A stretch of 32,000 nucleotides of DNA. It comes from Candidatus Auribacterota bacterium (GTDB taxonomy: Bacteria; Auribacterota; UBA6266). Positions 19,591-26,586 of the stretch are shown one piece after another. Within the stretch, counting starts at the first letter, position 1; each line of letters opens with the position of its first letter. Below the pieces are notes generated by a model. The model had not been told where the DNA came from and did no database searches. It saw only the letters and a list, made by a program, of their open reading frames with translations. The DNA is taken from NCBI GenBank assembly GCA_023136205.1, contig JAGLRQ010000023.1, positions 1 to 32,000 of the forward strand, written 5' to 3'. The position numbers and the translations under genes were made by a program.

Positions 19591-21099
19591 TTACCTTGAG
19601 CTTGTTTTCCCTTTCTCCTTGAGAACCCTGAGCAAAACCTTGTTCAAGTCCTCAATGCTGAACGGCTTTTTTATTGCAGCCAGAAAACCCATCTTCCTGT
19701 AATGGACAAGTGCGGGGTCATATGAATAGCCGCTGGTAATAACGGCTTTCACGTCAGGGTCAATCTTCTTTAACTCTTTTACTGTTTCTTTGCCGCCTAT
19801 ACCTTTTGAAACAGTAAGATCCAAAATTACCAGATTGTAGGGGTTTTTTGATTTAAGAGCGGCTTTATACTTTAGTACGGCTTCTTTACCATTTTTCACC
19901 AGGTCAGCTTTACATCCTATATACTCAAGCATCTCGCCGGCTATTTTTCTGACTATCGCTTCATCATCCATAAAGAGAATCCTGCATTTGACAGGATAAA
20001 CCTTTTTTTCCCGGGGCGCTTCTTTAACCTTTCCGGATTCATCCGCCGGCAGATAAATACAAAAAGTTGTTCCTTTTCTGGCCTTTGAATCCACAGTAAT
20101 CACCCCCGCGTGGTTGAGCACAACGGAATAAGAAACCGCAAGCCCCAACCCCCGCCCATTTTCCTTCGTTGTAAAATAGGGGTTAAATATCTTCCGGAGA
20201 TTCTGTTTGCTTATACCAACACCGTTATCCTTTATGGATATAACCACATACTTGCCGGCTTTAAGCGGAAGAATCCGGTCTTTTTTCACTACAGCATTTT
20301 TAATTTTTATTAATATTTTTCCACCCGCGGGCATTGCCTGCTCGGCATTTATAACCAGATTATTAATAACCTGGCTCACCTGCCCGTCATCCACTCTGAC
20401 CGGCCATAAATCTTTCTGAACTTCAAAAGAGCATTTGACATTGCCTCCCCTCACCGAAATACTCGAGGTATCCTTGACCACATGGGAAATATTAATCGTT
20501 TTTCTTAAAGGCACGCCTCCCTTGGCAAAAGTCAGGAACTGTTGGGTAATCTTTCTCGCGCTCAGAGAAGCCTTCTCCGCTTCTTCAAGCAAATCCGTAA
20601 GCTTTTTCTTTCCGCCTGACTCCATTTTCACAAGAGAAATGTTGCCGAGTATAGCTGTCAGGATATTGTTAAAGTCATGCGCGATACCGCCCGCAAGAAT
20701 ACCTATTGACTCAAGCCTCTGTGCTTTTAACATCTCTCTATATTTTATCTCAGTAATATCACATGCTTTCGCTTCGACAATTTTTCCGGCATCTGTAAAA
20801 CTTTTATTGATAACGGCATCGAGAATAACCCACTTATCCTTACCCGTCCGTGTCCTGAAATGATATTCCAGTCCACGAATTTCACCTTTCTCATCAAGCA
20901 GCTTACGTATTGACTTCTCCCCCTTCACAAGAACCATTACATTTTTTATCAGCTTGCCTTCCAGCTCTTTATGGCTAATACCCAAACCAAGCATTTCTAC
21001 AAATCCGGGGTTCGCGTACAATATTTCTCCTTTATCAAAGGTATACTGACAGACCCCGCATTTTGTAAACTCGAGCAGTCTTTTGTACAAATCTTTCAT
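19591..21099 (-). CDS. Soluble hybrid sensor histidine kinase (PAS, HisKA, HATPase_c, receiver)
   Basis: The translation shows an N-terminal PAS-like region, an H-box (GIAHDFNNIL), an N-box (NLVINAEQAM), G-boxes (DNGVGI, GRGLGLA), and a C-terminal REC domain (ILFMDDE...LVILDLTV...K). No TM segment is visible. Confidence 0.9.
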   Translation of the reverse strand: MKDLYKRLLEFTKCGVCQYTFDKGEILYANPGFVEMLGLGISHKELEGKLIKNVMVLVKGEKSIRKLLDEKGEIRGLEYHFRTRTGKDKWVILDAVINKSFTDAGKIVEAKACDITEIKYREMLKAQRLESIGILAGGIAHDFNNILTAILGNISLVKMESGGKKKLTDLLEEAEKASLSARKITQQFLTFAKGGVPLRKTINISHVVKDTSSISVRGGNVKCSFEVQKDLWPVRVDDGQVSQVINNLVINAEQAMPAGGKILIKIKNAVVKKDRILPLKAGKYVVISIKDNGVGISKQNLRKIFNPYFTTKENGRGLGLAVSYSVVLNHAGVITVDSKARKGTTFCIYLPADESGKVKEAPREKKVYPVKCRILFMDDEAIVRKIAGEMLEYIGCKADLVKNGKEAVLKYKAALKSKNPYNLVILDLTVSKGIGGKETVKELKKIDPDVKAVITSGYSYDPALVHYRKMGFLAAIKKPFSIEDLNKVLLRVLKEKGKTSSR

Positions 21100-22826: not shown

Positions 22827-23360
22827 CTACCGGACTCTTTTTACAGTTAATATATCTGATGCAGTGTAATAAAATGGGAGATTCACAAATTTGCAACCTT
22901 CTTTAACGGCCTTATTGGGAAGAGCAAGAACAACTATTTGAAAGTCAACCCCTATACCCGCGCCTTCTTTTTCTCCGATATAAATTCCGCCCTCAAATCT
23001 ACCATCCTGAGATACCACAGGCTTTGATTGTGCCCACCACCATTTGACGTGAGAAAGCGGCTTTACAAAAGGGACTAACTCCACTTGCTTTTCCTGCAAG
23101 GCAAGGTTAACTCTCGAATTAGATTCAACCTGCGCCGCCGTAGTGCGAAAATCAACATTCCCGCTAATTTTCACTATATAACCGGATACCTCAGCGCCAT
23201 TTTCAGGTTCTGAAAGTTTAACATTTATTATCCAATTCTTAGCCATAGAAGCGAGTTTCTCAACTCGCTTAACCCGCAGAAAAGTATAAATAGATATAAT
23301 AGAGGCAAAAATACCCAGGATTAGCCCGGACGAGCTAACAATTTCCCATAATTTCATCAT
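22827..23360 (-). CDS. Hypothetical N-terminally membrane-anchored protein with a beta-rich extracytoplasmic domain
   Basis: One TM helix is present (SSGLILGIFASIISIYTFL). It is followed by an Ig-like-looking segment (KLSEPENGAEVSGYIVKISGNVDF). I recognise no family. Confidence 0.55.
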   Translation of the reverse strand: MMKLWEIVSSSGLILGIFASIISIYTFLRVKRVEKLASMAKNWIINVKLSEPENGAEVSGYIVKISGNVDFRTTAAQVESNSRVNLALQEKQVELVPFVKPLSHVKWWWAQSKPVVSQDGRFEGGIYIGEKEGAGIGVDFQIVVLALPNKAVKEGCKFVNLPFYYTASDILTVKRVR

Positions 23361-23544
23361 ATTTTCTATCCCTATCCCAATTTAAATAAAAACAGTCTGG
23401 TTCCAACACAATTAAACGGTAAATTGGTTAATTATTTAATCACCAATTAACCATTCACCGTTTTAAACGACCTGTCCACAATTATTGAACGAAGTTTGAG
23501 TTTATTTTGAAAACAATTTCCATCCTTGTCCCGTTTCGCGGGAT

Positions 23545-23874
23545 TTATGAATCAAGAGGATTAAAATTATCTCTTTTTTGCTTAATTCTTAGTTCAACAC
23601 TTCGATTTATCTTCTCTTTTGTTTCTTCACCTATATGCGTAAACTTCAACTTATTAATCATTTCTTTCAAATTATGTTCTAAAACCAGTTTTCCAAAAGC
23701 TTCATCAAGAAAAGAAGGAGTCACAAGTTTAACTCCCTCAAAGGACACTTCAATATCACCCTTATCCCAATTTTCAAGAACCATCTCCCTGATAGCTTGC
23801 CCACCCTTCTTTTGAGGGCTATCAATTCGCTGAGAACAGTATTCGCCAATTATTTCTTGTATTTTTATCAACAT
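23545..23874 (-). CDS. DUF4325-like (STAS-like) small protein
   Basis: The 109-aa translation contains GQAIREMVLENWDKGDIEVSFEGVKLVTPSFLDEAFGKL. This matches my recollection of the DUF4325/STAS-like signature (xxF.GV..vtsSFldE.fG.L). An AAGGA SD is present. The start is 10 nt after the upstream GHKL gene stop. Confidence 0.65.
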   Translation of the reverse strand: MLIKIQEIIGEYCSQRIDSPQKKGGQAIREMVLENWDKGDIEVSFEGVKLVTPSFLDEAFGKLVLEHNLKEMINKLKFTHIGEETKEKINRSVELRIKQKRDNFNPLDS

Positions 23875-23884
23875 AAAACAATCC

Positions 23885-24817
23885 TTACCTAATTAACTTA
23901 TAATCTTCAGGAATAGGCTCTGACTTAAAAAATATCTTACTTCCCGGCTTGCTGTTTATTGTAGCATCAATGAAAGTTCCAGGGAATTTAAAATCCAGCC
24001 TTTCAATGTTTTTTACAACTTTTGATTTAGCCCCGCTATATGTAATTATCTCTTCATAAAACCCGTTACCGGAAATTATTATGAATTCTCCTCCAACAAA
24101 GTTAATAAACTCTCTAAACTCTGACAATCCAACTCCGGAATTTTCACGGCCTAAAGTTCCGGTTACCCCTCTAACTAAGGCTCTTTTAATTGCAAATGTA
24201 GAATCTAATTGTATCAAATCATTAAATTTTCTTGCTAAATGATTCTTTATGCCTATTCCCAAATCGCTTATGCAGACTCTTACTCTGTGAGTTTTTTGAT
24301 ATCCCTGCCCCAAAACAAAACAACCGGTTTTGGAACCACTATGCTGTTGAACATTTAAAATTAATTCAGCTAAACTTTCATGTATATGGTTACAAACATT
24401 AGAAGATAATTTTAATTCCTTTTCAATAATATTAATGAGCTGCTCTATTTCATAGTCATCAGGAAAATCAAACCGTCTAATTTTATAAATATACGTTCCA
24501 TTATGCTGCGGCGCCTTGCCATTCAAATAGGATTTAACTCCAACAAACTCACAAAAGCCGCATTCTGAAAGGAAATTTGATACTTCTTTGTCTTTTGGAT
24601 ATATATGGGATATCTTAGACTCTCGAACAGCCATTAAATATTTGCCCACCGCGGATAAAATATTTACACCAGAAGGATATATAAACTCTAATTCCGAAAA
24701 ATTCAGACAAATTTCTTCCCCATGTTCGACACTTAACATTTCTTTTATACAATTCATTACTTGTTTAGTGTCAGCATTTAAACCTAATCCGAATCTACCA
24801 GATAACTTTAATTCCAT
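23885..24817 (-). CDS. STAS-like N-terminal domain fused to a GHKL (RsbW/SpoIIAB-like) ATPase/kinase domain
   Basis: The N-terminal domain reads ICLNFSELEFIYPSGVNILSAVGKYL (STAS-like). The Bergerat-fold boxes are ESLAELILNVQQHS (N-box), ISDLGIGIKNHL (G1) and RENSGVGLSEF (G2). I prefer the ATG at 24817 (MELKLSG) over the GTG at 24841. Confidence 0.7.
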   Translation of the reverse strand: MELKLSGRFGLGLNADTKQVMNCIKEMLSVEHGEEICLNFSELEFIYPSGVNILSAVGKYLMAVRESKISHIYPKDKEVSNFLSECGFCEFVGVKSYLNGKAPQHNGTYIYKIRRFDFPDDYEIEQLINIIEKELKLSSNVCNHIHESLAELILNVQQHSGSKTGCFVLGQGYQKTHRVRVCISDLGIGIKNHLARKFNDLIQLDSTFAIKRALVRGVTGTLGRENSGVGLSEFREFINFVGGEFIIISGNGFYEEIITYSGAKSKVVKNIERLDFKFPGTFIDATINSKPGSKIFFKSEPIPEDYKLIR

Positions 24818-24858
24818 TTTTTTGCCTTTATAACAATGCACAAATTACAATAGCCCGC

Positions 24859-24886
24859 ATTATATGCAAAGTTTTGAAAAAAACAA
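24859..24886 (-). promoter_or_regulatory. Putative sigma70 promoter for the STAS-GHKL/DUF4325 pair
   Basis: The minus strand reads TTGTTT, a 16-nt spacer, then a perfect TATAAT. It lies ~40 nt upstream of the ATG at 24817. Confidence 0.45.
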
Positions 24887-25015
24887 ATAATTTATTATTC
24901 ATTTTTACCATTCTGCTTGCACCGTAATGAACTTTGCTTTACGTCAGGGGCTTGTGCAGAATAGCAAAATCTTTTCCCACCCCTTTTCCACTTCGCGGAA
25001 TTTGATGCAAATCGA

Positions 25016-25294
25016 TTATTCTAATTCAATTCTTTCTATTTCTCCAAGTGGAATACCAATACGGTTTTTAAGTTGAATTTCCATCTCTTCTAAGAGATAC
25101 TCCGGAGCTCTTAGAACACCAATTGTATCACTTTCTCCTTTTAAAATAATCTTATTCCCTTCTTGTTTAATTTCTCCAAGTTTTTCTCCAAAATCAGGTT
25201 GTTCAAAACCACTATTCCCTTTATTGAAAAATTTTGACCCTCTATTAAAATCAAGTTCTATTTCAGGATGATTACCAATGATATATTTCTTCAT
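25016..25294 (-). CDS. Hypothetical 92-aa acidic protein
   Basis: This is an uninterrupted ORF in a gene-dense minus-strand context, 66 nt downstream of the HNH gene. I recognise no motif. Confidence 0.45.
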   Translation of the reverse strand: MKKYIIGNHPEIELDFNRGSKFFNKGNSGFEQPDFGEKLGEIKQEGNKIILKGESDTIGVLRAPEYLLEEMEIQLKNRIGIPLGEIERIELE

Positions 25295-25360: not shown

Positions 25361-26131
25361 TTATTTTTTATAGATTTTATTGTAATGATATTCAACGTAC
25401 TCTTTTTTAGGGGCAGGAGGTATAAAAGTAAATATTTTATTGTGCTCTTTGTCTACCACTGCTTCACAATCTTCAGGAAATATAGCAATCTCACCGTAGT
25501 CAAATAAAACATGATGGTTAGGGCAGAGTACCAACATATTTGCTTTTATATCTGGCCCATCATGACCCAATGGTTTAATATGGTGAGTTTCTGCATATCC
25601 CTTTCCTTCTATACTTAATCTAGTACCACATATTTGGCACTGGCAATTCCGGTCTTCTTTAACCTTATTAGATAACGCAGTATCGCGAACCGACCTTGTA
25701 ATTGTAGTAGTAGTCTTCTCAGGAGGATATTCTTCCATAAATTCTGGTTTAGGTTGTTCTATAATTTCAACATAATTAGATATTTTGTTATAAGCGTCAT
25801 TAATTTTTTTGTCTGAGATAGAAAAAGTTCCATCTCGATTCTCCGTCAATATTCCTTGTCTTTGAAGTAATCCCTGTTTAGCTGCATCAATATGATGTTT
25901 CCAAATCGAATAGTTTCCTCTATTCATAGGTTTACAATCTTCATTGTTTAAGATATTTAGTGATTTAATAACATATTTTTTAAACTTAGATGATTGGTAT
26001 CTTTCATTCTTGACTATCATGTAGATTAGAATCAGGTTTTCAAAGTAATTTGTGCGTATTTGAGAATTATGATTTCTTTGCGGATTGTTGATATATTTTT
26101 CTCCCTTTGGAGTTATCTGGTAGTTAATCAT
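25361..26131 (-). CDS. HNH endonuclease with an N-terminal Mrr_N-like winged-helix domain
   Basis: The C-terminal region reads CQCQICGTRL...AETHHIKPLGHDGPDIKANMLVLCPNHHVLFDYG, a McrA-type HNH with a Cys pair and HH..N..H. The N-terminal half (SIWKHHIDAAKQGLLQRQGILTENRDGTFSISDKK) resembles the Mrr_N wHTH. A good SD (AGGTGA) lies ~5 nt upstream of the ATG. Confidence 0.8.
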   Translation of the reverse strand: MINYQITPKGEKYINNPQRNHNSQIRTNYFENLILIYMIVKNERYQSSKFKKYVIKSLNILNNEDCKPMNRGNYSIWKHHIDAAKQGLLQRQGILTENRDGTFSISDKKINDAYNKISNYVEIIEQPKPEFMEEYPPEKTTTTITRSVRDTALSNKVKEDRNCQCQICGTRLSIEGKGYAETHHIKPLGHDGPDIKANMLVLCPNHHVLFDYGEIAIFPEDCEAVVDKEHNKIFTFIPPAPKKEYVEYHYNKIYKK

Positions 26132-26412
26132 TTATTCACCTGTTTATTCTTGTTAGCTGTCCTATCAGAAAAATCAAGAGGAATTAACCTGTCCTTTCTG
26201 GCCCTTGCAATCTTGATTATACCCTTCTCCTCAAGCTCCAGCAACCCCAAAGAAATTGATTCCAAATTTAGGAATTTCAAAAATGGTTTTTTCCTGTTCA
26301 CGAGTTTGGATTTTACAACAGGTATTGTAATGAAGTTGATTAAATGTGTTTGGATGCGAGATATGCGACTGAGGGTTCCGTTTAAGAAAATAGGGACAGT
26401 CCACCCGCTCAC
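26128..26412 (-). CDS. Doubtful small ORF, possibly a wHTH-like protein, whose stop overlaps the HNH start (ATGA)
   Basis: The C-terminal part (FLKFLNLESISLGLLELEEKGIIKIARARKDR) looks helix-turn-helix-like, and the stop/start overlap suggests coupling. Against this, the only full-length start is a GTG embedded in the 13-bp inverted repeat, and no SD is visible. Confidence 0.25.
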   Translation of the reverse strand: MSGWTVPIFLNGTLSRISRIQTHLINFITIPVVKSKLVNRKKPFLKFLNLESISLGLLELEEKGIIKIARARKDRLIPLDFSDRTANKNKQVNK

Positions 26413-26442
26413 TACGCTCGCTTGGGACAGTCCCTATTTTCT
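26385..26442. repeat. Perfect 13-bp inverted repeat (AGAAAATAGGGAC / GTCCCTATTTTCT) separated by 32 bp
   Basis: Read directly from the sequence. The arms are at 26385-26397 and 26430-26442, and each carries the near-palindrome GGGACAGTCC. The repeat lies 68 nt downstream of the tRNA-Pro 3' end, at the edge of the AT-rich island. Confidence 0.8.
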
Positions 26443-26509
26443 GTAACGAAGCAGGCAAGCGCATATAAGCAACTGGAATAGATATCTGGTGTAAATTTCA
26501 AACTAAAAA

Positions 26510-26586
<77 letters not shown>

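Follow-up and report, generated by a model that had tools for sequence, protein, structure and literature searches.

Two adjacent genes on the reverse strand of a Candidatus Auribacterota bacterium contig (GenBank assembly GCA_023136205.1, contig JAGLRQ010000023.1, positions 1 to 32,000; this full 32,000-nt stretch is called the window) encode a STAS-GHKL protein and a DUF4325-type STAS-like protein, named here K (gene 1) and S (gene 2). As judged from profile alignments and shared motifs, the pair is a member of the CapK/CapS-VapK/VapS family in a toxin-less, KS-only form, and this kind, which a sequence-only reading of the same DNA had taken to be uncharacterised, has been known since 2026 (PMC13373217). 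We give a probability of roughly 55% to the reading that the pair is a CapK/CapS-VapK/VapS-type switch without a toxin, in which K would be activated by single-stranded DNA (ssDNA), S would be its substrate, and the output would be either self-contained or exerted in trans.

The 2026 work on CapKS and VapKSC established that an anti-sigma-type kinase can sense ssDNA and turn on immunity (Chambers et al., EMBO J 2026, PMC13373217). CapK, composed of a helix-turn-helix (HTH), a STAS and a GHKL domain, is activated by ssDNA and phosphorylates CapS, a STAS protein with a winged HTH (wHTH), on a conserved serine of STAS helix alpha-2, which splits the CapS dimer and de-represses the downstream immune operon; the active-site mutant N218A of CapK loses function, and the two proteins structurally resemble SpoIIAB and SpoIIAA (PMC13373217). 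VapKSC consists of VapK (STAS-GHKL, no HTH), VapS (STAS and a short C-terminal helix) and the PIN toxin VapC; VapC is inhibited by VapS, the phosphomimetic S48E abolishes this inhibition, and the vapKSC operon protects against a phage (PMC13373217). The acceptor serines, S48 of VapS and S54 of CapS, occupy the same position at the start of helix alpha-2, while VapK F54 and CapK W68 were found by mutation to be required for the ssDNA response (PMC13373217). In the catalogue of that work (Dataset EV3), VapK occurs only in three-gene loci with a PIN toxin and capK is always followed by the gene of the wHTH repressor CapS, and a two-gene K-S form without VapC is not described in the text of PMC13373217 or in Dataset EV3.

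Domains and conserved residues of K and S

K (23885..24817, reverse strand, 310 aa) reads as a serine-kinase-like protein of the VapK/CapK family, with a STAS-like domain at about residues 1-95 (nt 24533-24817) and a GHKL domain at about residues 140-290 (nt 23948-24400). Its start codon is the ATG of MELKL at 24817, a position at which eight homologues equivalently begin (M..KLxGRFGLG), and the length of 310 aa is also given by the gene call in an independent assembly; a mechanical list of open reading frames (ORFs) puts the start at the GTG 24841, upstream of this homologue-supported ATG. All motifs named in the sequence-only reading are present, namely EFIYPSGVNIL (residues 44-54), ESLAELILNVQQHS (147-160), DLGIGI (185-190) and GVGLS (228-232). 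The AlphaFold2 (AF2) model of K (predicted local distance difference test, pLDDT, 86.7) has an N-terminal beta-alpha-beta domain followed by the GHKL fold, and the architecture proposed for gene 1 held. No HTH family matched K in Pfam and NCBIfam scans, and in the model the first STAS strand begins as early as residue 2.

The relation of K to VapK was seen in profile comparisons, for which the VapK and VapS sequences were taken from the supplementary model file of PMC13373217. The profile of the window subfamily aligned to VapK with an hhalign probability of 98.1% (E 1.3e-13, 236 columns), and VapK scored 51 bits against the hidden Markov model of this subfamily, which equals E 1e-8 at library scale. 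Additionally, a tblastn search of K on plasmids returned the VapK of Deinococcus gobiensis (27% identity, E 7e-14), whose locus is annotated as HTH, ATP-binding, STAS-like and PIN genes and is present in Dataset EV3 as vapKSC. Curated family models, HATPase_c_2 and SpoIIAA among them, do not include K and gave sub-threshold matches only: Pfam HATPase_c scored 19.6 bits, under its cutoff of 26.4 bits (VapK is likewise sub-threshold with 23.4 bits), and the N-terminal matches to SpoIIAA and slr1659-type STAS regulators were weak (TIGR02886, 17 vs 115 bits).

K has many relatives, as 4890 were found by profile search at E<=1e-3 and 1272 at E<=1e-10 among 1.84 billion cluster representatives, the top listed ones being mostly 280-340 aa long and aligned over almost their full length. 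In an alignment of 75 diverse relatives, E151 and N155 of the N-box, D185 and G187 of the G1 motif, and G228 and G230 of the G2 motif are invariant, which shows that the ATP site is under selection. The predicted Mg-ATP ligand N155 (codon 24353..24355, reverse strand) stands opposite N160 of VapK. In the same hhalign alignment LEFIYPSGV of K pairs with CRFLRPNAV of VapK, which places F45 (codon 24683..24685, reverse strand) opposite F54 and makes it the putative counterpart of the ssDNA-stacking residue VapK F54/CapK W68; position 45 is aromatic (F, W or Y) in 67 of the 75 relatives. The serine of the PSG motif in the STAS domain of K itself, which had been put forward as a phosphorylation site, was rejected as unlikely because a serine is kept there in only 22 of the 75.

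S (23545..23874, reverse strand, 109 aa) is a DUF4325 STAS-like protein of the VapS type (Pfam PF14213, E 7.3e-14), as the sequence-only reading had supposed from its motif, and VapS itself belongs to PF14213 (E 2.7e-17); the two align in BLASTP with 25% identity over 103 aa (E 5e-5). S was modelled by AF2 (pLDDT 87.4) as a STAS core with one basic C-terminal helix behind it (residues 83-103), and neither this model nor the Pfam scan of the 109 residues gave a wHTH. The predicted phospho-acceptor is S54 in the motif TPSF (codon 23713..23715, reverse strand), which lies at the N-terminus of helix alpha-2, since this helix begins at residue 53 of the model; T52 is also located at this N-terminus. 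A serine directly precedes the invariant phenylalanine (position -1) in 15 of the 15 S proteins without a PIN partner that were compared, and in the K-S fusions described below as well.

K and S are linked, with an S gene straight after K in 20 of 20 distinct loci examined. In the window the two genes are separated by 10 nt (23875..23884, reverse strand), exactly as first read, and a Shine-Dalgarno-like AGGTAAGGA spans the K stop codon, because of which translational coupling is plausible. In other genomes both parts are joined into 425-aa single-gene K-DUF4325 fusions (P0171-P0218, P0225; loci L027-L030), which keep the serine motif as [TP]HSF; one fusion cluster contains 569 member sequences, and such fusions stand alone among housekeeping genes, e.g., ileS, alaS/recX and purD. 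Direct profile matches were obtained between K and PHROG 3364 (E 1e-40), S and PHROG 9989 (E 1e-4), and a K-S fusion and PHROG 5816 (E 3e-6), so the pair and its fused form are recurrent phage or prophage genes. All three PHROGs are annotated as 'unknown function', and the assignment offers a functional lead for them and for Pfam DUF4325.

Two further observations concern the ends of the kinases and a possible wider use of their module. The C-terminus of the window K (...SEPIPEDYKLIR, 23885-23920) is without the acidic tip found in other kinases of the family, about one third of which end in an acidic run with a hydrophobic or aromatic tip (24 of 75 aligned, 31 of 124 full-length representatives; EEGDIF, PEEDIF, EEDMLF, DIDILF and DEDDWF among proteins P0028-P0165), while the rate among internal 8-mers of the same proteins is 1.2%. 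The C-terminal tip of the single-stranded DNA-binding protein (SSB) is DDDIPF, which these acidic tips resemble. By this analogy, such a tip could be an autoinhibitory mimic of ssDNA, or could imitate partners of SSB; neither 'SSB' nor 'acidic' appears as a word in the text of PMC13373217. Residues 37-263 of K also match positions 27-246 of the 1750-position PADLOC model of DrmA (PDLC02567, E 8.5e-8), which suggests that a STAS-GHKL module like K is present at the N-terminus of some DISARM-type helicase proteins. As these positions of the DrmA model are the only PADLOC match of K and there is no model for S, the pair is not catalogued as a defence system in PADLOC v2.

Genomic setting of the pair and its relatives

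The contexts of homologous pairs were surveyed in a sample of about 20, which is biased toward relatives of the window K and is not to be read as a statistic. The profile of the window subfamily gave four loci on metagenome contigs and none on genome contigs or viral contigs, while one subfamily profile gave 10 loci on genome contigs and three subfamily profiles gave none on viral contigs. The surroundings of close homologous pairs (50-57% identity) are of at least five kinds, unrelated to one another: in L001 the pair lies within an operon for purine biosynthesis, in L005 an XRE/CapH-like HTH gene overlaps it, in L007 it comes after a PDC-M05 MNT/HEPN pair, in L012 directly after a tyrosine integrase and in L013 after an unannotated 326-aa gene. 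A second subfamily, in metagenome-assembled genomes (MAGs) of Nitrospirota and Elusimicrobia (L016-L024), has the pair between housekeeping genes. Elsewhere K-S is located in the accessory region of Streptococcus prophages just upstream of paratox, adjoining the integrase of Burkholderia phage vB_E188, between the tail genes and the integrase of Gordonia phage Phishy, and on an Alicyclobacillus plasmid after a small gene with a sigma-region-4-like HTH. A PIN gene is present in just one of 17 assessable split-pair contexts, the Deinococcus locus, and pairs without one were seen in Nitrospirota and Elusimicrobia MAGs, Bacillota, phages of Burkholderia and Actinomycetota, and the Aureabacteria MAG. 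In the window and the relatives sampled, K-S is thus very often unaccompanied, whether in a tRNA-linked islet, beside an integrase, in the accessory region of a prophage or even fused into one gene.

Genes of small DNA-binding proteins are often found next to K-S, which echoes the HTH fused to CapK: an AbrB-like 57-aa protein recognised by eye downstream of K-S (L001:11370-11543), the XRE/CapH-like HTH gene that overlaps the K start (L005:215-412), a 153-aa HTH regulator (L008:3372-3833) and the sigma-region-4-like HTH (L037:79-357). No such gene is found in the window. In a Candidatus Magnetomicrobium MAG, a patatin phospholipase that matches CBASS effector models (E 1.9e-73) is encoded on the same strand 430 nt downstream of K-S (L018:6454-7458) and may be an alternative effector or a coincidence. 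Distant K-like GHKL proteins of 293 and 316 aa (L031, L032, 5001-5951) are without a DUF4325 neighbour; their genes lie within a large operon that also encodes NurA, a HerA-like ATPase, a 1040-aa TPR protein and several unknown products.

In the window itself, GC content drops from about 0.42 to about 0.32 across approximately 23.5 to 26.1 kb. The GC content at third codon positions (GC3) is 0.26 for an HNH nuclease gene, 0.15 for a 92-aa ORF (orf92), 0.27 for K and 0.26 for S, compared with 0.35-0.45 in the backbone, and these four genes form a 2.6-kb acquired low-GC islet adjoining tRNA-Pro(GGG) (26510..26586, reverse strand). The nuclease (25361..26131, reverse strand, 256 aa) has an HNH_2 domain (Pfam, E 3e-9) and a weakly Mrr_N-like N-terminus (E 0.002); it matches PADLOC mREase_IV (E 9e-7) and, below the cutoff, the NCBIfam PT-DNA restriction endonuclease (E 4e-12), which makes it a candidate modification-dependent (type IV) restriction enzyme. 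Orf92 (25016..25294, reverse strand) lies between HNH and K, is called as a gene in independent assemblies and had no match in Pfam, NCBIfam, PADLOC or PHROGs. Downstream of S are a 177-aa protein with an N-terminal transmembrane segment (22827..23360, GC3 0.365) and an esterase-like protein, neither with a PADLOC match; since the base composition of the 177-aa gene is backbone-like, it is probably native to the genome and not part of the islet. The sequence-only reading had correctly named a nuclease and a membrane protein as neighbours, and its idea of a defence-type setting agrees with the tRNA-linked islet, the weak type IV restriction-like matches of the nuclease and the action of characterised relatives in phage defence.

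Pfam scans of the window ORFs of at least 90 aa, across all 32 kb, gave no sigma factor, no PP2C phosphatase (both as first read) and no PIN domain, and a tblastn search of the window with the PIN protein of a vapKSC locus gave no match; as a positive control, the third gene of the Deinococcus locus scored PF01850. At the edge of the islet, 45-150 nt downstream of tRNA-Pro, there is a 42-nt imperfect inverted repeat (26361-26466; core GGGACTGTCC / GGACAGTCCC, 22-nt loop), which overlaps a doubtful 94-aa ORF (26128-26412) abutting the HNH gene and could be a tRNA terminator or a remnant of an integration site. A direct repeat of the 3' end of tRNA-Pro was looked for and none was found. A hybrid histidine kinase (PAS-HisKA-HATPase_c-receiver, 19591-21099) is located 2.4 kb downstream; it is unrelated to K, backbone-like in composition and outside the islet.

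The pair had also been credited with its own promoter, and the motif TTGTTT-N16-TATAAT is indeed present (24859..24886, reverse strand), with 41 nt between its end and the start codon of K. Its frequency is not above chance, with one match in the window and 0.84 expected, and a generic scan did not list this site and found no excess of promoter-like sites in the window (12 vs 14.9 in shuffles). The motif was therefore rejected as promoter evidence, and it is a plausible K promoter at most. The unit is flanked by hairpins, one with a 12-bp stem between orf92 and the promoter-like site (24905..24967, reverse strand; z-score -2.3 for a 141-nt stretch), a short GC hairpin right behind the S stop codon, and a long AT-rich one (23412..23466, reverse strand; z-score -2.4) in the 184-nt gap downstream of S. 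These hairpins weakly support a separate transcription unit, and the two flanking gaps contain no plausible small ORF and no known RNA family.

Proposed mechanism and rival explanations

We infer that K would phosphorylate proteins on serine, as kinases of the anti-sigma-factor type do. By homology, ssDNA supplied by DNA damage, phage replication or restriction would enter the groove between the STAS and GHKL domains, stack on F45 and turn K on; K would then phosphorylate Ser54, where helix alpha-2 in the STAS fold of S begins, and S would thereby flip between partner-bound and free states. The partner is the PIN toxin in VapKSC and DNA, through the wHTH, in CapKS, and neither is present for the window S. 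The output would be intrinsic to K and S or would pass in trans through some component of the host or phage that is itself conserved, as no conserved cis-encoded partner emerged. A self-contained module is most likely, given how many unrelated neighbourhoods hold this pair or a K-S fusion. It would have reached this genome within the 2.6-kb islet beside tRNA-Pro, together with the HNH restriction-type nuclease. Restriction of phage DNA may plausibly feed ssDNA to K, a scenario suggested by the 88 of 443 capKS pairs located directly downstream of restriction-modification (R-M) systems (PMC13373217).

Several points weigh against this reading. The identity of K and S to VapK and VapS is only about 25%. 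The Foldseek comparison proposed at the outset returned only generic GHKL proteins for the model of K (TopoVI-B, GyrB, Hsp90 and CheA P4; E about 1e-4, query TM-score <0.3), while S had no significant structural match, its weak STAS matches having TM-scores of 0.4-0.5. In both PIN-linked S proteins compared (VapS, ASPF; Deinococcus, ISAF), the serine is at position -2 from the phenylalanine, and because of this shift of one residue the choice of acceptor, S54 or T52, is not certain. Additionally, the self-contained nature of the module would follow from the lack of a conserved neighbour in a small and biased sample, and HNH, orf92, K and S have an odd base composition in common, so that a functional link within the islet is conceivable.

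Such a link is what the sequence-only reading had proposed, namely that the pair gates an effector encoded beside it, either the HNH nuclease, possibly with orf92, or the 177-aa membrane protein, with S acting as VapS does on VapC. We regard this as unlikely, although some points favour it: HNH, orf92, K and S may have arrived together, as all four have a low GC3 (0.15-0.27) and share one strand beside tRNA-Pro; the family has a modular make-up, with VapS as the inhibitor of a nuclease and 88 of 443 capKS pairs just behind R-M systems (PMC13373217); and one relative has the patatin gene mentioned above. The gating of a neighbour is nevertheless left unsupported by the census, since HNH, orf92 and the 177-aa protein recur beside none of the sampled homologous pairs, those with 50-57% identity included; the neighbours vary, and many pairs are in prophages or small islands. 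A hairpin and the promoter-like site also separate orf92 from K, and S is without the C-terminal extension of about 17 residues that the two PIN-linked S proteins have. For the 177-aa protein in particular, an effector role is unlikely given its backbone-like composition, the hairpin-bearing 184-nt gap from S and its non-conservation.

Less probable still is a toxin-antitoxin-like arrangement, in which activated K would itself be harmful by phosphorylating or sequestering host proteins and S would be a decoy substrate or an inhibitor. The tight and plausibly translationally coupled arrangement of K and S would fit it, as would the lack of a conserved third gene and the behaviour of the two genes as one mobile cassette, seen in accessory regions of prophages beside integrases and other toxin-antitoxin systems, but K-S fusions are stable among housekeeping genes, which is unusual for toxin-antitoxin pairs, and K in the characterised relatives is a sensor and not a toxin (PMC13373217). 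It is also improbable, to a slightly greater degree, that the pair is a vapKSC remnant that lost its PIN toxin and is either decaying or kept as an anti-addiction module neutralising incoming VapC-type toxins. Family and gene order are those of vapKSC with only the third gene missing, yet PIN-less pairs make up whole subfamilies across several phyla and phages, they conserve the serine, the aromatic residue of the sensor site and all residues that bind ATP, and none of their S proteins reaches the length of the two PIN-linked ones, which together argue for a long-standing architecture and not a recent loss. The least probable of these explanations is classical RsbW/RsbV-like partner switching on a sigma factor encoded elsewhere in the genome. 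It could draw on the weak N-terminal SpoIIAA and slr1659-type matches of K, on the structural likeness of CapK/CapS to SpoIIAB/SpoIIAA (PMC13373217) and on the one relative with a small sigma-region-4-like HTH gene upstream; we rejected it, as neither a sigma factor nor PP2C is encoded in the 32 kb, K has its own STAS domain and is twice as large as RsbW or SpoIIAB, and the pair is horizontally mobile and phage-borne, which makes control of a core regulon unlikely.

Going back to the toxin-less, ssDNA-responsive switch as our preferred reading, it can be extended to a tentative proposal for the family, which we hold to be possible and less probable than the reading of the pair itself: self-contained KS-only modules, split or fused (425 aa) and with no toxin or DNA-binding domain, may make up the greater part of the CapK/VapK-like family, each being a minimal ssDNA-triggered phospho-switch. 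The output of such modules would be intrinsic or exerted in trans, and an output in trans, e.g., through SSB or the ssDNA-processing machinery, is hinted at by the SSB-tip-like acidic C-termini of about one third of the kinases. The strict conservation of motifs suggests that KS-only pairs are functional, and if so, they would represent an unrecognised output route for a kinase that senses DNA damage or phage. VapKSC and CapKS would then be particular forms within a much larger family of sensors, spread by prophages and with a new mode of action.

Comparison with known systems

The pair lacks a defining feature of both VapKSC and CapKS, because it has no PIN gene, no HTH on K and no wHTH on S. 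The likeness to VapKSC is the closer one in architecture: K is a STAS and GHKL protein of about 300 aa without an HTH, S is a DUF4325 STAS protein with a short C-terminal helix, the order is K then S with tight linkage, the asparagine of the active site, the aromatic residue for ssDNA and the serine of helix alpha-2 are all kept, and the genomic settings are mobile or of the defence type. The differences are that no VapC/PIN gene accompanies the window pair or 16 of the 17 sampled contexts, and that the window S is shorter than the two PIN-linked S proteins by about 7-12 residues, without their C-terminal insert and with its serine at -1 and not -2 from the invariant phenylalanine.

Like CapKS, the pair combines a STAS partner with a GHKL kinase that has a STAS domain of its own, and the ssDNA trigger residue takes the same position in both. 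Its place immediately behind the gene of a restriction-type nuclease is reminiscent of the R-M-linked capKS pairs (88 of 443). Unlike CapKS, it has no N-terminal HTH on K, no C-terminal wHTH on S and no recognisable immune operon downstream; as K is without an HTH and S without a wHTH, S cannot be a CapS-type repressor.

The MORC/paraMORC ATPases, to which the sequence-only reading had pointed as an analogy, have a GHKL domain followed by an S5-fold transducer and effector or DNA-binding modules. K ends about 20 residues past its GHKL sheet, has no transducer domain and gave only weak Foldseek alignments to GyrB, MutL and TopoVI-B (query TM-score <0.3), while its relatives are anti-sigma-type protein kinases, and a MORC/paraMORC-type ATPase was therefore rejected. 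To SpoIIAB/SpoIIAA and RsbW/RsbV the resemblance lies in a GHKL serine kinase paired with a STAS substrate that has a serine at the start of helix alpha-2. Those modules are part of a core regulon, whereas K-S is mobile and phage-borne, is accompanied by no sigma factor or PP2C in the window, and has a kinase of about 310 aa with a fused STAS domain in place of one of about 145 aa.

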